NCBI RefSeq assembly: GCF_004349105.1
Contig: NZ_SMLB01000050.1
Coordinates: 2,393 to 34,392, forward strand
DNA from: Jiangella aurantiaca
GTDB taxonomy: Bacteria; Actinomycetota; Actinomycetes; Jiangellales; Jiangellaceae
Length of the DNA: 32,000 nt
Direction of reading: 5' to 3'
Each line of letters opens with the position of its first letter. The first letter of the stretch is position 1. The position numbers were made by a program, and so were the translations under genes. Positions 6,757 to 17,232 of the stretch are shown one piece after another. Below the pieces are notes generated by a model. That model ran no database searches, was not told the DNA's origin, and saw nothing but the letters and a program-made list of their open reading frames with translations.

Positions 6757-6829
6757 GTCCCCATCGTCTAGCGGCCTAGGACTCCGCCCTTTCAAGGCGG
6801 CAACGCGGGTTCGAATCCCGTTGGGGATG
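6757..6829 (+). tRNA. tRNA-Glu(TTC): tRNA-Glu (anticodon TTC)
   Basis: Hand-folded cloverleaf. Acceptor GTCCCCA/TGGGGAT, anticodon stem CCGCC/GGCGG with loop CTTTCAA, and T-arm GCGGG-TTCGAAT-CCCGT. CCA is not encoded. Confidence 0.93.
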
Positions 6830-6874
6830 CGGTGTTCTGCTCCGGCAGGAACATCGGGCACGGCAGTACAGCAA

Positions 6875-6952
6875 GGTCCTGTGGAGCAGCTCGGAGTGCT
6901 CGCCGCCCTGTCAAGGCGGAGGTCGCGGGTTCAAGTCCCGTCAGGACCGCCA
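6875..6952 (+). tRNA. tRNA-Asp(GTC): tRNA-Asp (anticodon GTC), with encoded CCA
   Basis: Acceptor GGTCCTG/CAGGACC, D stem GAGC/GCTC, anticodon stem CCGCC/GGCGG with loop CTGTCAA, and T-arm GCGGG-TTCAAGT-CCCGT, followed by discriminator G and CCA. Confidence 0.95.
6908..6952 (+). repeat. attL core (inside the intact tRNA-Asp, from the anticodon loop to CCA)
   Basis: ctgtcaaggcggaggtcgcgggttcaagtcccgtcaggaccgcca is identical to 17188-17232. Confidence 0.9.
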
Positions 6953-6966
6953 GCAATACCAGCAGC

Positions 6967-8226
6967 TCAGAGGTCATCCTCTGGGCTGTTTTCATGTCCG
7001 GGGCCGGTCTCGTCGGCGGGCCGAGGCAGCGAAAAGGCATCGAACAGTCCCCTCACTCTGGTGCGTGCGCTTCCCGAGTCGTGCGTGTAGAGGTTGAGCG
7101 TCGTCGTCGCCTGTTCGTGCCCCATGACGCGCTGCACGTCGTTGACGGGCACGCCGTCGGAGACCAGCCAGGTCGCGTACGAGTGGCGCAGGTCGTGGAA
7201 CCGCAGCCCGCCGGAGGCCCGGCGAGACACCTCTTTGACGGCGGCGGCCTCGGTCTCGAAGGTCTCCGTCAGCTCTCGCCCGGCGTCGTCCTGCCACGTG
7301 CCCCGGTACACCTGCTCGCCCTCCTGGACCACCTTGCCCAGCAGTCCGGCCCGGACGAGCGCAGGACGCCACACACGGACGCGGAACAGCGTGCGTCGCA
7401 CCGGTCCCCCGGCCTGGTTCGTGAACACCTCCCCCGCGTCGCCCTGGCCGTAGCGGCGACGGTGGTCGCGTAGTGCGGTCACGACGAACGGCGGCAGCGG
7501 GACGACGCGGCGGCCGGCGCGCGACTTCGGGAACGGTTTGGTCGTGACGGCCCCGGCAACCTCGACGGCGACTCGCACGACGTGGACCTCCTCGGCGTCC
7601 AGGTCGACGGCGTCCCAGCGGAGGCCGGCGCACTCGCCCCACCGCAGCCCGGTTCCGCCCGCCAGCGCCACCAGGGCGCGATGACGCTCGGGAACGGCGG
7701 GCAGGAGCTGGCTCACGAACGCCTCACGGCTGATCGTGCGCTCGTCAGTGTCCGAACGACGGATCGCCGGGAGCTGGACGCCCTCGCACGGGTTGAAGGC
7801 CAGCAGCCGGTCACGGACGGCGAGCCGCATGATGCCCGCGAGCACGTGGAAGCACTTCCGCACGGTGGCCGGGGAGCGGGTGGCGTTCAGCTCCGAGACC
7901 CAGCGCTGGACCGACGAGTGGTCAATCTTGTCCAGCGGCACCGACCCCCAGCGCGGCAGCACGTGCGTCCGGAGGACGGAATCCGTGCGCACGGTGGTCG
8001 TCGTGGCGCTCGCCCGCCCAGCGACCCACGTCGCCGCGTAGTCGCTCAGACGGACCCGCCCGGCGCGAGGATCGACGTAGAGCCCGTGGTTCTTGGCCGA
8101 CTCGACCTCGGCGAGGAAGCGGGATGCCTCACGCTTGGTCGGGAACGACTTGGAGCGCTGGGCCCCGGACGGATCACGCCACGAGGCGCGGAAGGTCCCG
8201 GCGGTCGTCTTGCGTACGAAGCCCAT
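6967..8226 (-). CDS. int: tyrosine-type site-specific integrase
   Basis: Starts at the internal ATG at 8226 (MGFVRKTTAGTFRASWRDPSG..). Carries an N-terminal SAM-like/arm-binding region and catalytic-box motifs TGLRWGECAGLRWDAVDL, RFHDLRHSYATWL and GHEQATTTLNLYTH. Its start overlaps the xis stop by 1 nt. Confidence 0.93.
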   Translation of the reverse strand: MGFVRKTTAGTFRASWRDPSGAQRSKSFPTKREASRFLAEVESAKNHGLYVDPRAGRVRLSDYAATWVAGRASATTTTVRTDSVLRTHVLPRWGSVPLDKIDHSSVQRWVSELNATRSPATVRKCFHVLAGIMRLAVRDRLLAFNPCEGVQLPAIRRSDTDERTISREAFVSQLLPAVPERHRALVALAGGTGLRWGECAGLRWDAVDLDAEEVHVVRVAVEVAGAVTTKPFPKSRAGRRVVPLPPFVVTALRDHRRRYGQGDAGEVFTNQAGGPVRRTLFRVRVWRPALVRAGLLGKVVQEGEQVYRGTWQDDAGRELTETFETEAAAVKEVSRRASGGLRFHDLRHSYATWLVSDGVPVNDVQRVMGHEQATTTLNLYTHDSGSARTRVRGLFDAFSLPRPADETGPGHENSPEDDL

Positions 8227-8504
8227 CAGAACAGTCCGTCCTGGCCGGGGAGCAGCGGGCCGGGCTCCGGATCGGGCTCGAGGGTGACGTTCTCCAGCCA
8301 GTCGTGGAACGCCTGTTTGGGGATGACCCAGCGGCCGCCGAGCTTGCGTGCGGGGATGTCGCCGGAGCGCACGAGGGCGTAGGTGCCGCCGAGGGCGAGG
8401 TTCAGCAGCTCGGCGACCTCGGCGACGGAGTAGACGAGGGCGTCGACGCGGGGCTGTTGTCCTGGCGGCCGGTGGGCGTCGAGGCGGATCACGTTGTCGG
8501 GCAT
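8226..8504 (-). CDS. xis: excisionase-family helix-turn-helix DNA-binding protein
   Basis: 92 aa. VYSVAEVAELLNLALGGTYALVRSGDIPARKLGGRWVIPKQAFHDWL is the excisionase/MerR-like HTH pattern. The gene sits immediately upstream of int. Confidence 0.8.
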   Translation of the reverse strand: MPDNVIRLDAHRPPGQQPRVDALVYSVAEVAELLNLALGGTYALVRSGDIPARKLGGRWVIPKQAFHDWLENVTLEPDPEPGPLLPGQDGLF

Positions 8505-10063
8505 GGCGGGGTTCCTTCCGGGGAGGACGGGTCGGTTGCCGAAACATCACTGGACGGCGGTCCGGTGGCCTGTTTGGCGGCGTCGTACTGCTCGCGCCAG
8601 CGGCGGCGTTGTGCGATCGACTTGGCGACGGCCCACACGTAGGAGGGCGCGTCGGGGTCGCCGGGTCGGACCGGGGTCCAGATGTAGCGGGCCTTGCCGT
8701 CGGGTGCGGTGGCGGTTGCCGAGAGCTGGTCGTGGTCGTCCATCTCGATGCCGGCTTCGGCGAGGACGGCCCGGACGACGGCGGCCCGGTCGGCGCGGTG
8801 CTCGGTCAGCGTCTTGCCGGTCCACTTGCGCGAGACGAGGACGCGGCGGCCTCCGAGCCCCAGGTGGTCGCGGTCGTGGGCCTTGGATGTGCAGCGGCCG
8901 GGTTCCATGCCTGGCTTGGCATTCTTCGGCTGAGTGCCGTAGCGCAGCCAGTTCGCGCATGTCGGCGAGCACGGGAGCCAGCGGACTTCCTCGGCGAGGC
9001 GGTCGATGTGGGCGCGGCGAGCGGCCGAGATGCGGTTCGGGTCGTCGATGTCGAGTGGTTCGGCGATGGACTTGGTCAGGTACTTCGTCAGGTAGCCGAC
9101 GCGGCGGTCAGCGGCCGGTGTCCCGGCGAGGATGCCTTGCAGGTCGACCTGGACACCGAAGCGCAGCACGTGCACCGGCTCTGGTTCTTCGCCGAGGTCG
9201 AGGCCGTCGCCGTTGTCGACGTAGTCCATCGCCTCGTCCCAGGTCGGCAGCATCCAGCCGCCGTCATCGACGTAGCCGCCCTGTTCCTCGTCCCACGCCG
9301 GCCAGCCGTCGCGGTAGTGGTGGACGTGGTTGATGCCGGGCCACCAGACCTGGTGGTACGTGGCCGCGACGACCTGCTTGATGAGCTTGCGCGGGATCGC
9401 TCCACGGATGGCGGCGTGCAGGTGCGGCGCGAGGCGTTGTTGCGGTTCGACGGCGGCGAAGTACTGCACGTTGTAGCCGGTGGCGCGGCGAAGGTTCTGC
9501 CAGAACCGGTCGACGAGCTTCGGGAAGTGCATCGCGTCCAGCGCTGCACGCCGGTAGTCGTAGCGGTCCGGGTCGACCGGGACGCCCTCGTCGGTCACGC
9601 GCCCGTAGGACGGCATCGTGAGCGTGAGGAACATCGACGGCCGGTAGGTCTTGCCGTCCGGGGCATCGAAGGTCCGCCCGACGGTGTGGCCCGAGACCGG
9701 CAGCCGAGGTAGGTCAGGCACGTCCTCACGTCGTCTGGTGGACCGGACGCGCCGTTCTGTCGCGTCGTCCTCGTCGTCGACTGTGGGAGTCTCGTCGTCG
9801 CCCTCTGTGGCGTCGGGGCCGGCGAGCTCGGGTTCGGTGTCGAGGTGCCAGCCCTCGCGGCACTGCTGCATCCGCAACCGGCGAGCCCGCTCCGCGCAGG
9901 ACGGGCAGACCGCCTCACGGGTCGCGCCACACGCGATCGTCACCGTGCGCACGTCGCCGGTTGTCGTGTCGGTCACCCTCGACAGGACCGGACGCACGCA
10001 AGCGCCGACGAGCACAGCAGCACCGCGGACCAGCTCGCCGGACAGGGCCGGGCCGAGCACCAT
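8489..10063 (-). CDS. repSA: RepSA-type replication initiator protein
   Basis: Starts at the internal ATG at 10063 (MVLGPALSGELV..). Motifs CGATREAVCPSCAERARRL, FLTLTMPSYGRV and APHLHAAIRGAIPR match my memory of pSAM2 RepSA-family initiators. The start overlaps the upstream gene stop by 1 nt, and the 3' end overlaps xis by 16 nt. Confidence 0.85.
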   Translation of the reverse strand: MVLGPALSGELVRGAAVLVGACVRPVLSRVTDTTTGDVRTVTIACGATREAVCPSCAERARRLRMQQCREGWHLDTEPELAGPDATEGDDETPTVDDEDDATERRVRSTRRREDVPDLPRLPVSGHTVGRTFDAPDGKTYRPSMFLTLTMPSYGRVTDEGVPVDPDRYDYRRAALDAMHFPKLVDRFWQNLRRATGYNVQYFAAVEPQQRLAPHLHAAIRGAIPRKLIKQVVAATYHQVWWPGINHVHHYRDGWPAWDEEQGGYVDDGGWMLPTWDEAMDYVDNGDGLDLGEEPEPVHVLRFGVQVDLQGILAGTPAADRRVGYLTKYLTKSIAEPLDIDDPNRISAARRAHIDRLAEEVRWLPCSPTCANWLRYGTQPKNAKPGMEPGRCTSKAHDRDHLGLGGRRVLVSRKWTGKTLTEHRADRAAVVRAVLAEAGIEMDDHDQLSATATAPDGKARYIWTPVRPGDPDAPSYVWAVAKSIAQRRRWREQYDAAKQATGPPSSDVSATDPSSPEGTPPCPTT

Positions 10064-10392
10064 CACAGCCTTCCTGCCGGTCGCGGCGTGACCATGAACT
10101 CCGGCTCGTCGTCCTCCAGCCGGTACACGGGCAGCGGCCGGCGCAGCTCGGCGGGATCGACGGCCGGTGTGGCTTCCATCAGGCCGTGCACGCAGTGGCA
10201 GGCGTCCAGCGGACCGATCACGCCGAAGCCGTCGCAGTCGATGCACACGATCCACACCGACCTCTCGTGCAGACCGATGCAGCGTGGCGACGTGCACCAC
10301 CGGTATCCGCACCAGATGCACACCTGGGCGAAGTTCAGCCGCAGCGGGCGGAGCGTCGCCGCCGTGGCTGAGGCAAGTGCCTGGGTCGTCAT
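10063..10392 (-). CDS. small Cys-rich (putative zinc-binding) protein in the pra position of the element
   Basis: ATG at 10392 is preceded by GGAGG with a 5-nt spacer. 109 aa containing CIWC, CTSPRC, CIDC and CHC clusters. Translationally coupled to repSA. Confidence 0.6.
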   Translation of the reverse strand: MTTQALASATAATLRPLRLNFAQVCIWCGYRWCTSPRCIGLHERSVWIVCIDCDGFGVIGPLDACHCVHGLMEATPAVDPAELRRPLPVYRLEDDEPEFMVTPRPAGRL

Positions 10393-10437
10393 CGTGACCT
10401 CCGGGGATAGGAGATGACTCCATTCGACACGCAACAC

Positions 10438-10555: not shown

Positions 10556-11320
10556 GTGGCGGACTTCAGGGGTCGCCCTGCCTACCTGCAGATCGCTGAC
10601 GACATCCGCAGCCAGATCCTCGACGGCACGTTGCAGGCCGAGGACCGGTTGCCCAGCGAAGCCGACCTCATGGCCGACTACGGCGTCTCGCGCATCGTCG
10701 TGCGCAACGCCGTCGAAGTCCTCCGCTCCGAAGGACTCGTGGTCAAGCAGCAGGGGCGCGGCAGCTTCGTCCGCGCACAGCGACCACAACGCACCCGCGT
10801 CGTCGGCGACCTCTACAGCGAGCGCCCCGAAGGATCGCCGTTCGCGGCGTCAGCCCGAGCGTCCGGCCAGGTCCCGGAGTGGGAGTACCAGACCCGCCGC
10901 ACCACCGCATCCAAGACGATCGCCGACCGGCTCGGCATCGCGGCCGGCGACCCGGTGATGCGCACCAGCTATCGGTTCTTCGCCGACGGCGAGCCCGCGA
11001 TGCTCTCAACCTCGTTCGAACCCCTGGCCATCACCGAAGGCACACCCGTCGAACAACCCGAAGGCGGCCCCGTCACCGGCGTCGTGCCCCGGATGGACGC
11101 CATCGGCATCCACATCACCCACGTCGTCGAGGACGTCACCGGGCGGTCAGCGCGACCCTATGAGGCCGAGACACTGAAGGTCCCGGTCGGCGTGCCCATC
11201 CTCGCGATCGAACGCACCTACTACGCGAAGAGCCGGCCCGTCGAGACCGCCGACATCGTCGTCTCCTCCGACCGCTACGTCCTCTCCTACCGCCTCCCCG
11301 TGCCACCGCGGGCGGACTAG
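10556..11320 (+). CDS. GntR family (HutC/UTRA-type) transcriptional regulator, KorSA-like
   Basis: RLPSEADLMADYGVSRIVVRNAVEVLRSEGLVVKQQGRGSFV is a GntR wHTH, and the C-terminal length is consistent with a UTRA domain. GTG at 10556 lies after GAGGGGAGGG. The gene is divergent from the repSA operon, as korSA is in pSAM2. Confidence 0.9.
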   Translation: MADFRGRPAYLQIADDIRSQILDGTLQAEDRLPSEADLMADYGVSRIVVRNAVEVLRSEGLVVKQQGRGSFVRAQRPQRTRVVGDLYSERPEGSPFAASARASGQVPEWEYQTRRTTASKTIADRLGIAAGDPVMRTSYRFFADGEPAMLSTSFEPLAITEGTPVEQPEGGPVTGVVPRMDAIGIHITHVVEDVTGRSARPYEAETLKVPVGVPILAIERTYYAKSRPVETADIVVSSDRYVLSYRLPVPPRAD

Positions 11321-11694
11321 CCGGCACCTGCGTCTGTTGACCCTGCGAGAGGCTACGTCACCTGATGTCTGGCCCCGCCGCCTCGGATACCCGGACTCGC
11401 CCGCATGCCGATGATCGAGCGGTCGCAAGAAGCTGGCGGCGGCTTGTGCGATGTAGAACAGCACCTCACAACGTTGCGTTGCGCCGCCCAGCACGTCACG
11501 CCTAGTAAGGCTCGTCGATCCGCTCACCTTACGTGTAACCTGGTCCACCTATCTATCAGCCGCCTCACCTAGTGACACTGCTGTCTTGGTCCACTAGAGC
11601 ACGCACCGAAACTGCGGGCAAGTAGTACCTCAAATGATCCTGTCTCGCTGAGTTCCCTAATGCGTCGATTCCAAACAAGTTACAAGGGGGCGAC

Positions 11695-12204
11695 ATGGCC
11701 TATCGAAACAAACTGTACATCGCCTTCGACGGCGACAACGACATGCGCTGGTACCGCCTATTGACGGCATGGGAAGCCAATAAGAACATCGATTTCGACT
11801 TCCACAATGCTCATGACTTGCATCCGGCCCGAGACACGAGCCTGCCGGATTCCATTAAGGCGCAACTGCGCAAGCGGATGCAAAGCTCGAAGACGTTTCT
11901 GCTTTTGGTCGGGGAGCGGACCAAGTACATCCGCGGCTACATTCCATGGGAGATCGAGTACGCGCGCCACCTGGACCTGCCGATCGTCGTCACCAATCTA
12001 AACGACAAACGACGGTACGATTCCGATCTGTGTCCCAGTTCGATCCCGAGCGGTAAAGGCGCAGTGCACGTTTCCTATGAGGCACAAATCCTAAAGCACG
12101 CACTCGATAATTGGCCGATCTACTACGCCTCGAATCGGCAGAAGGTGCTTGACGGCGTGTGGCATTACGACGATGAGATCTACAAGAGCGTGGGCCTGGG
12201 ATAA
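11695..12204 (+). CDS. thsB: TIR-like domain protein (MTH538/ThsB-like, DUF1863-type)
   Basis: 169 aa. KLYIAFDGDNDMRWYRLL.. and ..KTFLLLVGERTKYIRGYIPWEIEYA match the ThsB TIR-like pattern, with a putative catalytic Glu at W85-E86. AAGGGGG RBS precedes the start. The sequence is lower in G+C. Confidence 0.8.
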   Translation: MAYRNKLYIAFDGDNDMRWYRLLTAWEANKNIDFDFHNAHDLHPARDTSLPDSIKAQLRKRMQSSKTFLLLVGERTKYIRGYIPWEIEYARHLDLPIVVTNLNDKRRYDSDLCPSSIPSGKGAVHVSYEAQILKHALDNWPIYYASNRQKVLDGVWHYDDEIYKSVGLG

Positions 12205-12269
12205 GCAGGCGGCGGCTCAAAGCCCTATTCTCCAGCCGGCTCGGAGCTCATACGATGAGGCTATAGCTT

Positions 12270-13127
12270 GTGACTCTCACGCGCGACCTTAGGAACAAGC
12301 GCTTCTGGCGGGGCCTTACTACGCACGGCCTCGCCGCTCTCGGTGCCCTATCCGCGACACTTGGGCTGTATGACCTCTTCTCGCCCGATTCCCTGGGAAG
12401 GCTCGACCTGCCCGAGATCATGCTAGTTCCCGCAGTCGCGCTCGCCTACGCCGCGTGGAAGTCATGGCCCTACCCAGTGGAGCAGCACTACGCGACGCCA
12501 GACACCAAGATCCGTTTAGTGACCGGCGATCTGTTCGAACAGGGCACTAACCTCGTCATCGGCATGGCGGATACCTTTGACATCGAAACGCCGCACATCA
12601 TTGCGACCGGAAGCGTGCAGGGCCAGTTCCTCGACCGTGTCTACCACCACGACGTGGCAGCCTTGCGCTCAGATCTAGAGGCTGCACTCATCGATAAGGT
12701 GCCGATTGAGACGGGTGTGGCGAAGCCCGGGAACACGGACCGCTACCCCCTGGGTACCGTCGCTACTATCTGCCACCAGCGCACTCACTATTTCTGTGTT
12801 GCCTATACGCGTATGGACGAGAACAACAATGTGTCGTCATCCATCGCAATATTGTGGGAAGCGCTAGAAAGACTTTGGGACGAGGTCCGGGCTCGCTCCA
12901 ACGGCGAGCCGGTCTCCGCGCCTGTGATCGGACTTGGACAGTCGGGCATGTCGACCGTCCTTCCCATCCAAGACGCCATTCGATTCCTCATCCTCTCATT
13001 CATGTTCGCTTCACGCCGCCAAAGAGTATGCGGGGAACTATTCATCGTAATTCGCCCACAGGACGAGAGGCGGATTGACATGCTTGAGATCCAAGAGTTC
13101 CTCCGGTCCTTGAGGTTGTCTTCGTGA
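12270..13127 (+). CDS. thsA: ThsA-like effector: two N-terminal TM helices plus a C-terminal ThsA-type Macro domain
   Basis: 285 aa. Hydrophobic segments GLTTHGLAALGALSATLGLYDLF and IMLVPAVALAYAAWKSW are followed by IRLVTGDLFEQGTNLVIGMADTFDIE..GSVQGQFLDRVY..APVIGLGQSGM, resembling PF20016/DUF6430. GTG start at 12270. Confidence 0.72.
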   Translation: MTLTRDLRNKRFWRGLTTHGLAALGALSATLGLYDLFSPDSLGRLDLPEIMLVPAVALAYAAWKSWPYPVEQHYATPDTKIRLVTGDLFEQGTNLVIGMADTFDIETPHIIATGSVQGQFLDRVYHHDVAALRSDLEAALIDKVPIETGVAKPGNTDRYPLGTVATICHQRTHYFCVAYTRMDENNNVSSSIAILWEALERLWDEVRARSNGEPVSAPVIGLGQSGMSTVLPIQDAIRFLILSFMFASRRQRVCGELFIVIRPQDERRIDMLEIQEFLRSLRLSS

Positions 13128-13555
13128 GCCATCTCGTTGTTCCAGATGTATACCCCTGTCCCTTCTGTGACTACCTTAGCGGTGCTCGACCGTATACGAT
13201 CCTCCACCGAGAAGCGGACGCAGCAATCCTCGTTACGCGTGAGCAGCGTGGAGCTTCCCACCTTCTGGTCGTTACTGAACGCCACGCCCCAACAATCCTC
13301 GAACTTCGCACCGCAGAGTCGCATGCGGTGATTGAACTAGTGCGCATGGCTGCCAGATTGATAGACCAGGCAGAACAGCGGCCGGGGATTAGCGTTTGGC
13401 AGAACAATGGCGCGGCCGCTCACCAGACGATACCTCACGTGCACTTTCATATCGCTGGCACACTCCCAGAAGGCGGTACCGATTGGGAGGAGGTTCACGA
13501 ACTCAGCATCGAAGAGACCGATGCCATGGCCGAGCGCCTGCGTGCGTACTTCTAG
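13124..13555 (+). CDS. HIT (histidine triad) family nucleotide hydrolase/transferase
   Basis: 143 aa with CPFC near the N-terminus and NNGAAAHQTIPHVHFHI (HxHxHxx). The GTG start overlaps the upstream stop (GTGA, 4-nt overlap). Confidence 0.88.
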   Translation: MSHLVVPDVYPCPFCDYLSGARPYTILHREADAAILVTREQRGASHLLVVTERHAPTILELRTAESHAVIELVRMAARLIDQAEQRPGISVWQNNGAAAHQTIPHVHFHIAGTLPEGGTDWEEVHELSIEETDAMAERLRAYF

Positions 13556-13667
13556 GCTGTAGAGGGCTAGGTAACGAGTTGTCCGCTACGCCGTCAAGAT
13601 CAGTCGAAACGCGACCCGACTCCCGCGCAGCGCCGTACATTGCTGGATTGAGCTATTGAGGATCAAG

Positions 13668-13688
13668 GCGGCGCGCTCCGCGCGCCGC
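13668..13688 (+). terminator. GC-rich hairpin (9-bp perfect stem, 3-nt loop) downstream of the HIT operon
   Basis: gcggcgcgc-tcc-gcgcgccgc. There is no U-tract. It lies about 110 nt after the HIT stop, at the point where composition returns to high G+C. Confidence 0.3.
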
Positions 13689-14203
13689 GTGGCCGCTCGC
13701 CCGCTCGCGTCCGGGCATGCGGCCTGGCGGCCGGTCCCTCCCGCTCGGCGGCGGCGGCCACACGCACGGGGACGACCCCTTGGCTAGACAACCGGAACAG
13801 TCACCGACAGCCGTCCCCCTCTACGCGGCCAGTCTCCGGCCTCCACTCCGCGCCTCAAGGGCGCTTCTCGTCACTATGTGACCGGCTTTCGCCGACCCTT
13901 GACCCGCTCCCAAGCGAACACATCATCGAGATCCAACGACCTGGTGACCCGGCGTATGACGCTCACCCTCACCTGCCGTCGAAGTAGCCGACAATATGAC
14001 GAGCAGGCAAGGAGGCACGGTCCGCCATACCGCCCGGCCAGAGACGAGGTCGTGCCCCGCATGACCCCAGGCGGTTCGACGACATTATCCCCGGGTTAAG
14101 CGTTGGGCGTCCGCTGGTCGAAAATGCCCCGGCCCCCTGCGCCCTGCCTCTCCGAGCGCGTGCCCGCGAGTTCGGTGTCAGGCGCTCCGACTAGGGTCGG
14201 CAC

Positions 14204-15292
14204 ATGCAAGCCGAGCTCGAAGAGACACTCCTCCTCCAGGAGGAATGGACAGCCGACAACACAGAGGCGATGCAGCGTCGCGGTGTCCTCGTTCGGCAGA
14301 TGATCCCTCAGTGGCTTCGACAACAGCTCAATGAACCGACCTCCACAGCCGTTATGAGTGACCTCGCCGTGGAGGGACGTGATGGCACCGGCAGAAAGAC
14401 TGAGATCCCCTGGACTCGTGTCTACTCAGCGCGCCGATCACCCTCCGCAACCCAGGGCTGGTACATCGTCTATCTGTTCAGCGCGTTCGGAGATCGGGTC
14501 TACATCTCCTTGAACCAGGGGACGACAAGGTGGGAAGGCGGCGAGTTCCGCCCGCGCGCTGGCGAGGAGCTTGCCGCCCGCGTCTTATGGGCGCGGAATG
14601 TCCTCGGCATCACCTGGGCCAATGAACTGGCCTTGGATATTTCACTGGAGGCTCGGCGGTCCAACCTGGGTCATCAGTACGAGCTCGGCAACGTGGTGGC
14701 TATTGAGTATCCGCTCAACAGCATCCCGGACGATGCCGCCCTGGCCTCTGACCTGCGGCGCATGATCGACTGGCTCGGGCGGATCTACGAGGCTGAGGAG
14801 ACCTCACTGACGATTCCGGGTGAACCGGCGGCCGAGATCGCGGACGCCCTCGTCGCGATACGTCAGGCCGCAGGCTCGGCTCGCAAGACCGGGCAGGGTT
14901 TCCGCCTGAACACCGCTGAGAAGCTCGCGATTGAGAAGCATGCCGTTCAGGTTGTCACGAAGCACTACGAGGATCTCGGTTACAGCGTCGATGATGTCGG
15001 AACCAAGCAGCCGTTCGATCTCGATGTGAAGCGAGGAGACATCCATCTAAGTGTGGAGGTCAAGGGCACCACATCCGTCGGTGCCGAGGTCATCCTGACC
15101 AGCGGCGAAGTGAATCACCACCGCGAGCGGTTCCCGAACAACTCCCTGGCCATCGTCCACTCGATCGAGCTCAACAGGTCTGATGAGGCCCCCATGGCCA
15201 CCGGGGGCGAGCTGCACATCGTCAGCCCGTGGGAGGTCGAGGACTCCGACCTCATCCCACTGGCCTTCAAGTACCAGACAGGGCTGACCTGA
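14204..15292 (+). CDS. MrcB-like N-terminal domain (DUF3578) fused to a DUF3883 nuclease-like domain; candidate modification-dependent (type IV) restriction protein
   Basis: 362 aa. The N-terminal half, GRKTEIPWTRVYS..ATQGWYIVYLFSAFGDRVYISLNQG, matches the DUF3578 pattern. The C-terminal half, EKHAVQVVTKHYEDLGYSVDDVGTKQPFDLDVKRGDIHLSVEVKGTTS..VILTSGEVNHH, matches the DUF3883 PD-(D/E)xK-like pattern. Confidence 0.8.
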   Translation: MQAELEETLLLQEEWTADNTEAMQRRGVLVRQMIPQWLRQQLNEPTSTAVMSDLAVEGRDGTGRKTEIPWTRVYSARRSPSATQGWYIVYLFSAFGDRVYISLNQGTTRWEGGEFRPRAGEELAARVLWARNVLGITWANELALDISLEARRSNLGHQYELGNVVAIEYPLNSIPDDAALASDLRRMIDWLGRIYEAEETSLTIPGEPAAEIADALVAIRQAAGSARKTGQGFRLNTAEKLAIEKHAVQVVTKHYEDLGYSVDDVGTKQPFDLDVKRGDIHLSVEVKGTTSVGAEVILTSGEVNHHRERFPNNSLAIVHSIELNRSDEAPMATGGELHIVSPWEVEDSDLIPLAFKYQTGLT

Positions 15293-15330: not shown

Positions 15331-15708
15331 TTACACAGCGTGAAGACGGATGGGCTTGTTGAGTGCGTCCGCCAGGTGAGAGAGGTCGCCGGGGTCGCTG
15401 GTCACGACCAGGTCGCCGCGTGACAGGGCGGAGATGACGACCGTGGCGTCGACAACGTCGCTCGTCCTCGCAGTGGCACACGCAGCGCCGGCTTCGCGGG
15501 CGAGTTGTTCGCTCATCGGCTCGATCTTGCAGCCACGCAGCAGGCGTGAGAGCTGGTGTTGAGGGCCGCCGCGCCATGCCTGCGCCAGGACGGCGGCGGG
15601 CACGACGGGGCGGATCTCGTGGCGCAGAGCGTCACGGTGCAACGCCCAGATATCGACTCGATTGGCTTCCGCCGCGACCAGCGCGCCGGTGTCGTAAGTG
15701 ATGCCCAT
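15331..15708 (-). CDS. vapC: PIN-domain type II toxin (VapC family)
   Basis: 125 aa. MGITYDTGALV.. supplies the N-terminal acidic residue, and DVVDATVV and VVTSDPGDL are PIN acidic motifs. The start overlaps the antitoxin stop by 1 nt. Confidence 0.85.
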   Translation of the reverse strand: MGITYDTGALVAAEANRVDIWALHRDALRHEIRPVVPAAVLAQAWRGGPQHQLSRLLRGCKIEPMSEQLAREAGAACATARTSDVVDATVVISALSRGDLVVTSDPGDLSHLADALNKPIRLHAV

Positions 15709-15962
15709 CAGTCGGTGATGACGCCCTCGCGGACCAGCACGTCGTGCGCCTTGCGCGCTTCATCGGCCGGGATCGGTCCGTGCTCGGCCTCGAACTCCTC
15801 AACGGCCAGCAGGCCATCGAGGACGGCCGCGCGCTCCGCCGGCATGATTGCAGCCAGGCGGACTCCGTGGTCGGTCAGGTAGATGACCTCCCCGGTGGAC
15901 GTGGCTCGGCTGATCACCTCGCTGAGGTGATCCTTCGCGTCCTGCACCGGCATCTCGGACAT
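15708..15962 (-). CDS. Phd/YefM-type antitoxin
   Basis: Starts at the internal ATG at 15962, giving 84 aa. MSEMPVQDAKDHLSEVISRATSTGEVIYLTDHGVRLAAIMP is the typical Phd/YefM N-terminus. Confidence 0.8.
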   Translation of the reverse strand: MSEMPVQDAKDHLSEVISRATSTGEVIYLTDHGVRLAAIMPAERAAVLDGLLAVEEFEAEHGPIPADEARKAHDVLVREGVITD

Positions 15963-16123
15963 AGTCCCAGCGTACGGCAGAAGCTCAGCAGACACAGCAG
16001 TCCTCACTCTCGATCGAGACGACGCAACGCTTGGGAACGATCGCTCGTCGTTGCAGCTTGTTGTACGGAACGGCTGATCCCGTCGCACCATCAGCGGATG
16101 CGACGAGACCAGCCGACACATCG

Positions 16124-17187: not shown

Positions 17188-17232
17188 CTGTCAAGGCGGA
17201 GGTCGCGGGTTCAAGTCCCGTCAGGACCGCCA
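17188..17232 (+). repeat. attR core (duplicated 3' part of tRNA-Asp)
   Basis: Identical 45 bp to 6908-6952. The upstream sequence does not complete a tRNA. Confidence 0.9.

Follow-up and report, generated by a model that had tools for sequence, protein, structure and literature searches.

A three-gene Thoeris locus with a co-inherited HIT gene on an AICE-like element of Jiangella aurantiaca

RESULTS

A third gene completes the TIR and Macro pair

We analyzed a window of 32,000 nt from contig NZ_SMLB01000050.1 of Jiangella aurantiaca (all coordinates are window positions), in which positions 11695-13555 hold three adjacent genes on the forward strand: thsB, thsA, and a gene for a histidine triad (HIT) protein (Table 1). 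The initial annotation of this DNA had described a pair of genes, one for a TIR protein and one for a protein with transmembrane (TM) helices and a Macro domain, and had read them as a type II Thoeris system carried by a tRNA-integrated actinobacterial element. Both open reading frames (ORFs) are present as claimed, at 11695-12204 (169 aa, ATG start) and 12270-13127 (285 aa, GTG start), 65 nt apart on the plus strand, and the peptides quoted for them (KLYIAFDGDND, FLLLVGERTKYIRGYIPWEIEYA, IRLVTGDLFEQGTNLVIGMADTFDIE, SVQGQFLDRV, and APVIGLGQSGM) are all found in the translations. The term "pair" is correct for the two-gene core but not for the complete system, because an end at 13127 cuts off a third gene that starts at 13124. 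The three ORFs are intact and their catalytic residues are conserved; the identity, completeness, and catalytic-residue integrity of ThsB, ThsA, and the HIT protein are established.

The nomenclature of such systems is not uniform. In the Sorek-lab scheme "type II" covers any system that combines a TIR protein with a TM-Macro protein, and in PADLOC the same term denotes the HIT-containing form; "ThsC" is the HIT protein in PADLOC and the proposed name of the Macro effector in a 2025 preprint. PADLOC type II was defined on 167 systems (2.4% of Thoeris) that have an extra HIT gene beside ThsA and ThsB (Payne et al. 2021, PMC8565338). Its ThsA2, ThsB2, and ThsC2 models are each matched end to end by the corresponding window protein, and the three genes are adjacent and co-oriented; the locus belongs to this three-gene variant, catalogued since 2021. 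The PADLOC family is known from genome mining alone, and a role for its HIT protein has only been hypothesized. In the NCBI annotation the three products are named "molecular chaperone Tir" (ThsB), "hypothetical protein E1262_24860" (ThsA), and "HIT domain-containing protein"; neither ThsA nor ThsB is represented by a model in NCBIfam, and for this reason the system is invisible in standard annotation.

Table 1. Features of the Thoeris locus and of the surrounding element in the window
Feature	Position	Strand	Evidence or remark
tRNA-Glu and tRNA-Asp	6757-6952 (tRNA-Asp 6875-6952)		tRNA and Rfam scans
attL, 3' end of tRNA-Asp, with the same 45-nt core as attR	6908..6952	+	exact direct repeat
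Tyrosine integrase, 419 aa, ATG at 8226	6967..8226	-	PF00589 8e-21
Excisionase (xis)	8226..8546	-	TIGR01764 7.4e-12
RepSA-type replication initiator, pSAM2 family	8489..10423	-	PF20199 5.8e-94
GntR/UTRA regulator (KorSA-like), divergent from repSA, Thoeris cassette directly downstream	10556..11320	+	PF00392 1.7e-18, PF07702 8.5e-19
Intergenic region, 374 nt, presumed promoter region and left edge of the low-G+C cassette	11321..11694	+	G+C drop from ~0.68 to 0.57
thsB, TIR-like predicted sensor and signal synthase, 169 aa	11695..12204	+	PF08937, PADLOC ThsB, PDB 8v6t
thsA, effector with N-terminal two-helix hairpin (11-37, 47-64; predicted membrane anchor) and Macro domain (residues ~80-283), 285 aa	12270..13127	+	PF20016, PADLOC ThsA2, AlphaFold2/Foldseek
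HIT gene (PADLOC "ThsC"), histidine-triad nucleotide hydrolase/transferase family, 143 aa	13124..13555	+	PF01230, PADLOC ThsC2, AlphaFold2/Foldseek
MrcB_N and NOV_C protein, 362 aa	14204-15292	+	PF12102 3.4e-35, PF13020 2.6e-06
PIN-domain toxin	15331-15708	-	Pfam/NCBIfam; VapBC-like pair with Phd/YefM antitoxin
Phd/YefM-type antitoxin, 137 aa as listed	15708-16121	-	1-nt overlap with PIN toxin coding region
attR, partial copy of the tRNA-Asp 3' end, right border of the ~10.3-kb element	17188..17232	+	exact repeat of attL

ThsB and ThsA

The first protein is a TIR protein of the ThsB type, as predicted in the initial annotation. It matches the Pfam family PF08937 (ThsB_TIR) with an E value of 2.3e-15 over model positions 1-98 of 100, and it matches the PADLOC models ThsB1 (3.7e-66) and ThsB2 (1.2e-58) end to end. 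Among PDB sequences it is closer to EcThsB2 (8v6t), to which it aligns over its full length at 2.4e-32, than to 9uv0 (6e-06), which we take to be the Bacillus ThsB. In an alignment of 64 ThsB sequences that includes the crystallized EcThsB2, residues Y8, E86, Y158, and Y163 are each at least 95% conserved, and E86, proposed earlier as the catalytic Glu, is near-invariant and aligned to the catalytic Glu of EcThsB2. A ThsB "subfamily 9" has been described in which an active-site Tyr stands beside the catalytic Glu and a C-terminal tail of about 20 residues carries two Tyr; it is associated solely with TM-macro ThsA proteins (Shi et al. 2024). Judged by sequence, the window ThsB belongs to this EcThsB2-like type, as Y8, E86, Y158, and Y163 all align with the corresponding EcThsB2 residues.

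The thsB start codon is preceded by a GGGGG Shine-Dalgarno sequence 4 nt upstream. No sigma-70-type promoter or terminator rose above the shuffled expectation in 11250-14300, the consensus used being sigma-70-based and uninformative for an actinobacterium. An Rfam scan of the whole window returned the two tRNAs only, with no riboswitch or leader before thsB.

The second protein covers the entire PF20016 model (ThsA_Macro, formerly DUF6430; 6.4e-52, positions 1-183 of 183) and matches PADLOC ThsA2 at 5.9e-121, again end to end. The Pfam families found for the two ORFs are those that the initial annotation had anticipated, PADLOC agrees for both, and their combination matches the architecture of published type II systems, a TIR protein with a TM-Macro protein. 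The PDB sequence relatives of the window ThsA are the Macro domains 9uuz, 8r66, 8v6q/r (E. coli), and 8v6s (Pseudomonas corrugata); we take 9uuz and 8r66 to be Bacillus amyloliquefaciens ThsA, the latter carrying the signaling molecule. An AlphaFold2 model built from 42 homologues (mean predicted local distance difference test score [pLDDT] 84) has two N-terminal helices followed by an alpha/beta domain, and its top Foldseek matches are 8r66 and 8v6q/r/s (E ~1e-13, target-normalized TM-scores of 0.80-0.84), with generic macrodomains well behind. The Macro assignment therefore holds in sequence as well as in structure, where the model superposes on the 8r66 domain bound to histidine-ADP-ribose (His-ADPR). 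The helices at residues 11-37 and 47-64 (pLDDT 65-81) correspond to two hydrophobic segments; the two N-terminal helices claimed earlier are thus recovered in the model, as a hairpin whose membrane insertion is predicted.

In the ligand pocket the adenine-binding Asp is kept (D87, equivalent to D100 in B. amyloliquefaciens and D83 in E. coli), as are the G-x-G loop and the structural D104, and the ribose contacts are conservatively replaced (Q117 and T180). We also considered Q117 as a ligand signature specific to HIT-linked ThsA, as Gln stands in 67/67 family members at the place of the Asn of Bacillus, E. coli, and Pseudomonas; this candidate was rejected, because the HIT-less ThsA proteins of loci L166 and L167 have Gln as well. 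A replacement of Arg by Gly at position 226, characteristic of the window subclade, is the only pocket change left without explanation.

The HIT protein

The third gene starts with a GTG codon that overlaps the TGA stop of thsA by 4 nt (GTGA). Its product matches Pfam PF01230 at 8.6e-12 and the PADLOC model ThsC2 (HIT family) at 6.5e-69, end to end. A protein on record for Jiangella aurantiaca has the same sequence (100% identity), and 781 homologues were found at E<=1e-5. Among 30 homologues of 59-77% identity, H105-V-H107-F-H109(-I-A), Q101, W92-Q-N-N-G96, and C12xxC15 are invariant; H107, in the middle of the triad, is the predicted nucleophile. The protein has both hallmarks of the HIT superfamily, the H-phi-H-phi-H-phi-phi motif and the HIT alpha/beta fold: its AlphaFold2 model (pLDDT 86.6) has 130 Foldseek matches in the PDB at E<=1e-3, and the best 50 of these 130 are all of the HIT fold. 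The nearest structures are uncharacterized bacterial HIT proteins (3lb5, TM-score 0.83), followed by mycobacterial HIT proteins, Fhit (~0.68-0.74), and Hint1 (~0.58-0.61). NCBIfam models for ATP adenylyltransferase and GalT show weak similarity to it, far below every cut-off. Both Pfam and the AlphaFold2 model describe a single domain, with no sensor or regulatory domain.

The only link between HIT proteins and Thoeris, His-ADPR, or ADP-ribose (ADPR) hydrolysis in the literature that we searched is the PADLOC paper, whose authors suggested that the messenger might be formed or broken down by the HIT protein, which would perhaps be an off-switch comparable to the ring nucleases (Payne et al. 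2021, PMC8565338).

thsA and the HIT gene are inherited together

The linkage of the two genes was assessed in two samples: 80 genome loci found through the HIT protein, nearly all from Actinomycetota, and 80 metagenome loci found through ThsA. In the HIT-anchored sample, ThsA adjoins the HIT gene in about 70 of the 78 assessable loci and lies immediately upstream of it in all but one of them (L056); ThsB precedes ThsA except in a few loci, where it lies downstream in convergent orientation. In the ThsA-anchored sample, thsA is followed directly by the HIT gene in 70/70 assessable loci, and ThsB lies upstream of ThsA, in the gene order of the window, in all 37 loci with enough flanking sequence. 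The spacer between thsB and thsA in the window is 65 nt (12205-12269), with both genes on the same strand. The junction between thsA and the HIT gene is far tighter: it measures -4 nt in 46 of the 68 loci and -1 nt in a further 14, so that stop and start codons overlap in 60/68, and the spacing never exceeds 8 nt, except for one locus with a start-codon artifact. The overlapping codons argue that translation of the two genes is coupled.

The two proteins also diverge together. In pairwise-identity matrices for 63 complete systems, ThsA and the HIT protein correlate with r=0.74, and ThsB correlates with either of them at only 0.27 and 0.24. The HIT protein is the more conserved partner, with 54-73% identity to its window counterpart as against 36-80% for ThsA. 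Eight of the 80 HIT-anchored loci (L017, L019, L020, L023, L055, L061, L065, and L073) have HIT homologues of 56-64% identity with no Thoeris genes nearby, and in a neighbor-joining tree seven of these eight orphan proteins fall into sister clades outside the Thoeris-linked clade. Given the adjacency, the overlapping junctions, the co-divergence, and the position of the orphans, the HIT gene is not a chance neighbor but an obligate co-inherited partner of its ThsA clade.

Several of the orphan HIT genes lie beside ORFs that, judged by eye, resemble a LysR-type regulator and an arginase-like enzyme. The Thoeris HIT protein may derive from an actinobacterial HIT protein with a housekeeping function, or the recruitment may have run in the opposite direction.

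A few metagenome-assembled contigs with HIT-containing systems carry labels from outside Actinomycetota: Pseudomonas (L039 and L062), Methylotenera (L057), Ideonella (L067), Hyphomicrobiales (L053), Vicinamibacterales (L056), Saccharibacteria (L050), and Verrucomicrobiales (L076). Either cross-phylum transfer or binning error could account for them. The phage collection contained no ThsC-like HIT protein, and thus there is no sign of a phage-borne cassette; the plasmid collection gave two ThsC-like matches only. One of these is on the Mycobacterium intracellulare plasmid pFLAC0070_1 (L081; 247 kb, mobilizable), where a HIT gene of 61% identity at 1527-1976 has an IS3 transposase gene upstream, at the place expected for thsA; this may be a disrupted system, seen through an incomplete PLSDB gene table.

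The ThsB sensor appears to have been exchanged

The low correlation of ThsB with its partners is well illustrated by the window itself. Its ThsB shares only 33-42% identity with the ThsB proteins of loci that resemble the window at 70-80% identity in both ThsA and the HIT protein, and none of the 37 metagenome systems with a ThsB exceeds 42%. In this respect it is atypical of PADLOC type II, with 33-42% identity to most members, and the other members of its lineage belong to HIT-less systems or are second ThsB proteins. Relatives of about 50% identity occur in HIT-less, two-gene ThsB-ThsA(Macro) operons (L166 from Agrobacterium deltaense, L167, and a JGI contig), and those of 54-70% identity are additional, convergent ThsB genes downstream of the HIT gene in canonical thsB-thsA-HIT loci (L165, L040, L041, and L025). 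In the window this variant is the sole ThsB, and it stands 65 nt from thsA, where most family members overlap. These comparisons indicate that the window thsB is a swapped-in variant, with a spacer as expected after a replacement, and that TIR sensors have been exchanged between HIT-linked and HIT-less systems. Because one TIR lineage serves both kinds of effector, the signal probably belongs to the same class with and without the HIT protein, which in turn makes it unlikely that the HIT protein is needed for making the signal.

The cassette is carried by a reduced integrative element

The claim that the genes are cargo of a tRNA-integrated element is borne out by the window, where 45-nt att repeats, one of them in a tRNA-Asp gene, enclose int, xis, and repSA. 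Together with a GntR-type Kor regulator and the tRNA 3'-end repeats, these genes make up the core of an actinomycete integrative and conjugative element (AICE) of the pSAM2 type. As in the known pSAM2-type AICEs, there is a repSA-xis-int operon ending at the tRNA att site and a divergent GntR (KorSA-like) regulator; unlike them, the window element has no FtsK-like Tra or Spd domain in its larger ORFs between the att sites, as judged by Pfam and/or NCBIfam, and the rest of its 10.3 kb is accounted for. On this ground it appears to be a reduced AICE-like element, at best a non-self-transmissible derivative, in which the space is filled by defense and toxin-antitoxin cargo. ARAGORN and Rfam found no complete tRNA at attR (17188-17232). 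The mobile-element context of the operon is established. The integrase start was revised: a longer ORF of 527 aa (to 8550) was rejected, its in-frame third-position G+C being 0.47 upstream of 8250 as against 0.86-0.90 downstream, and the revised start overlaps the xis stop by 1 nt.

The Thoeris cassette differs in composition from its surroundings. Its G+C content is 0.575, compared to 0.692 for the remainder of the window; along the window, the values are 0.57-0.61 across ~11.0-14.0 kb, ~0.68-0.74 upstream, and 0.63-0.72 downstream. The same is seen elsewhere, with G+C below that of the flanks in 52/59 loci and a mean difference of 8 points, which is consistent with frequent horizontal transfer. 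In Streptomyces pratensis (L082), the same thsB-thsA-HIT cassette lies a short way downstream of a GntR/UTRA gene, with one DUF218 gene between, on an element that keeps SpdB and has AbiEii downstream, which suggests that the neighborhood of the korSA-like gene is a recurrent site for cargo.

The HIT gene is followed by about 650 nt (13556-14203) that contain no convincing gene and form the right edge of the low-G+C cassette. Within it, 13640-13830 is very G+C-rich and partly palindromic (e.g., GGCGGCGCGCTCCGCGCGCCGCG), has no Rfam match, and may be a recombination scar or a terminator. The protein encoded at 14204-15292, with its McrB-type N-terminal DNA-binding domain, is a possible modification-dependent restriction enzyme of a single-chain, type IV-like kind. 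NCBIfam has no model for it, and its sole PADLOC match, HmaA at 0.0022, is not convincing. As its Phd match covers only residues from 54 onward, the Phd/YefM-type antitoxin probably starts further downstream than listed. Two small unknown ORFs also lie between the att repeats, and the genes past 17.6 kb are ordinary metabolic genes.

DISCUSSION

A possible mechanism

We consider it reasonably probable that 11695-13555 is a single three-gene anti-phage operon, thsB-thsA-HIT, that encodes a HIT-containing TM-Macro (type II) Thoeris system, with a His-ADPR-like signal made by ThsB, a membrane effector in ThsA, and a HIT protein that hydrolyzes the signal. Here we infer the identity of the signal, the membrane activity of ThsA, and both the substrate and the direction of action of the HIT protein.

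A close reference is the type II Thoeris of B. amyloliquefaciens Y2, which has the same two-protein core, with two N-terminal helices and a PF20016 Macro domain in ThsA; the window Macro domain superposes on 8r66 with a TM-score of 0.80, and at the positions that bind adenine (D87) and contact the ribose (Q117 and T180) the residues are either the same or conservative replacements. The differences are that sequence identity is only about 22%, that the Bacillus system has no HIT gene, and that Bacillus R240 is Gly in the window subclade. The Bacillus TIR protein makes His-ADPR, a ligand of the pocket in the ThsA Macro domain, and the ThsA N-terminus has been described as resembling membrane-impairing effectors. 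ThsA Macro domains oligomerize on ligand binding and also bind ADPR, with aggregation. Both His-ADPR production and phage protection by it have been shown only for the Bacillus system. The TM-macro Thoeris systems of E. coli and P. corrugata (Shi et al. 2024; 8v6q/r/s/t) share with the window the full-length alignment of ThsB to EcThsB2, the Tyr-Glu site, the tail tyrosines, and a Macro domain that superposes at 0.80-0.84. The E. coli system is described as one ThsA with two ThsB proteins, and a HIT protein is not mentioned (Shi et al. 2024).

By extrapolation from B. amyloliquefaciens, the signal in the window system could be His-ADPR. ThsB, with the Tyr8/Glu86 site typical of TIR proteins associated with TM-Macro effectors, would sense infection and catalyze base exchange on NAD+ to yield a linear ADPR conjugate, most likely histidine-ADPR; the ThsA Macro domain would bind this signal and oligomerize, and the clustered N-terminal hairpins would compromise the membrane and abort the infection. 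The overlapping GTGA junction would ensure that the HIT enzyme is translated in a fixed ratio with ThsA. Enzymes of the HIT superfamily attack the alpha-phosphate of a nucleoside 5'-monophosphate joined to a leaving group. The HIT enzyme could accordingly attack the AMP phosphate of the signal and/or of by-product ADPR, giving AMP and (His-)ribose-5-phosphate. Such hydrolysis would remove the signal and the ADPR present at basal level, leaving ThsA to fire only upon a burst of TIR activity, and it would reset the effector afterwards. We propose tentatively, at somewhat less than even chances, that the HIT protein is a hydrolase dedicated to the signal made by the TIR protein (His-ADPR or histidine adenine dinucleotide, or by-product ADPR). 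Exchangeable TIR sensors combined with an obligate, co-evolving ThsA-HIT module are what such an off-switch design predicts.

The ring nucleases of type III CRISPR-Cas (Crn1-3 and Csx3) offer a functional analogy only, one already drawn by the PADLOC authors (PMC8565338): in both cases a constitutively co-encoded small enzyme would destroy a second messenger and thereby limit a suicidal effector. The fold and chemistry are unrelated, and ring nucleases occur sporadically, as accessories; in contrast, the HIT gene is obligate in its clade and translationally coupled to the effector, and cleavage of the signal by its product is a prediction.

Weighing the alternatives

Several points speak against this picture of signal, effector, and off-switch. 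On the enzyme side, the nearest crystallized TIR protein, EcThsB2, had no detectable NADase activity in vitro (Shi et al. 2024). On the effector side, the 19-residue Kyte-Doolittle maxima of the two ThsA helices are 1.29 and 1.40, under the classic cut-off of 1.6, so that of the two hydrophobic helices described earlier the hairpin stands and its transmembrane nature is a prediction. Furthermore, G226 of the window subclade (15/67 family members) stands at the position of Bacillus R240, which contacts the carboxylate of the histidine moiety of His-ADPR, and this position is Arg or Lys in 51/67 family members as well as in the Bacillus, E. coli, and Pseudomonas ThsA proteins. As for the HIT protein, its modeled fold would place it somewhere among Fhit, Hint, and uncharacterized bacterial HIT proteins, none of them a diagnostic match, and the literature searched contained no experimental study of any HIT-containing Thoeris system. 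Finally, the HIT gene is obligate in the ThsA clade, whereas negative regulators are usually sporadic accessories, a pattern that fits an essential positive component equally well.

Such a positive role is the main rival to an off-switch: the HIT protein would mature, convert, or amplify the TIR product (e.g., by nucleotidyl transfer, as in the GalT/Ap4A-phosphorylase branch), or it would be a structural or catalytic partner that ThsA needs. The obligate association (70/70), the co-divergence and translational coupling with thsA, and the greater conservation of the HIT protein all suit this alternative, as do the weak NCBIfam similarity to ATP adenylyltransferase and GalT, the presence of the Ap4A phosphorylase Rv2613c among the Foldseek matches, and the lack in the window ThsA subclade of the Arg that contacts the His carboxylate in the Bacillus protein. 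On the other hand, the same ThsB lineage is paired with HIT-less ThsA proteins, and the characterized TM-Macro systems are two-gene systems that need no third gene; thus, neither production nor recognition of the signal requires a HIT protein. The Macro pocket retains its adenine-binding Asp, which argues that the adenosine, a part that cleavage by the HIT protein would take away, is still present in the ligand, and Q117, which had seemed to be a HIT-linked feature of the pocket, occurs in HIT-less ThsA too. On balance we regard a positive role as fairly unlikely. Another explanation is that the third gene is a mere housekeeping neighbor of the plain two-gene type II Thoeris system of the initial annotation. 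HIT proteins are indeed ubiquitous housekeeping enzymes, the NCBI annotation goes no further than "HIT domain-containing protein", and 8/80 HIT-anchored loci lack Thoeris genes, several of them beside LysR-like regulators. However, the adjacency in 70/70 loci and the overlapping codons in 60/68 effectively refute a chance neighbor by synteny; the HIT gene also shares the low G+C content of the cassette, a dedicated PADLOC model recognizes its product at 6.5e-69, and 7/8 orphans fall outside the Thoeris-linked clade. This explanation is hardly credible.

Two further readings depart from an off-switch in other ways. The HIT protein could be an independent second arm of the operon, either a nucleotide-degrading effector or a guard against phage countermeasures that destroys nucleotides produced by phage anti-Thoeris proteins or the ADPR-derived intermediates from which phages rebuild NAD+. 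Defense operons often carry several effectors, the HIT catalytic site is intact, and both ADPR-based NAD+ reconstitution by phages and signal sponges are documented. Nevertheless, a second arm is improbable: TM-Macro Thoeris does not deplete NAD+, so NAD+ reconstitution poses no obvious threat to it; a single-domain HIT protein of 143 aa has no sensor or regulatory domain; and the coupling is strict to ThsA rather than to ThsB, which points to the effector or the signal and not to the phage. The other possibility concerns the cassette as a whole, which may mainly serve the mobile element, through post-segregational stabilization or competition between elements, or may be non-functional in this chimeric copy. 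It does sit on an AICE-like element beside a PIN/Phd toxin-antitoxin pair, an effector gene with an overlapping "antidote" gene resembles an addiction module, and thsB appears to have been swapped in, 65 nt from thsA rather than with the usual overlap. Three intact ORFs with conserved catalytic residues, the phage protection given experimentally by homologous TM-Macro systems, and the occurrence of the same cassette in many non-AICE contexts make this quite improbable, and an anti-phage operon whose HIT protein removes the signal is the reading that we retain.

Implications

TM-Macro Thoeris has been characterized, and models for its HIT-containing form have been part of PADLOC since 2021; in this regard the locus itself adds little. 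What is new is that the HIT gene is obligate in its ThsA clade, coupled to thsA and co-evolving with it, and that the TIR sensors, by sequence comparison, are exchanged with HIT-less systems. An obligate, coupled, and co-evolving HIT gene together with exchanged sensors makes the long-hypothesized regulatory role of the HIT protein directly testable. The locus also illustrates that small pSAM2-like elements of actinomycetes can trade transfer genes for defense cargo near the GntR (KorSA-like) gene.

To our knowledge, ways to avoid self-activation and to reset a signaling suicide system are known for type III CRISPR, where ring nucleases serve this purpose, and not for Thoeris or other TIR pathways. 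If the proposed activity is correct, the HIT protein would be the first off-switch, among all Thoeris and TIR pathways, that is encoded by the host and degrades the signal, and ThsA and the HIT protein would behave like a toxin-antidote module with an enzymatically set threshold. Across a widespread, mainly actinobacterial clade, the effector is always accompanied by a catalytically intact HIT enzyme, and the operon provides a simple three-gene setting in which to study how self-activation is controlled and how the system is reset.

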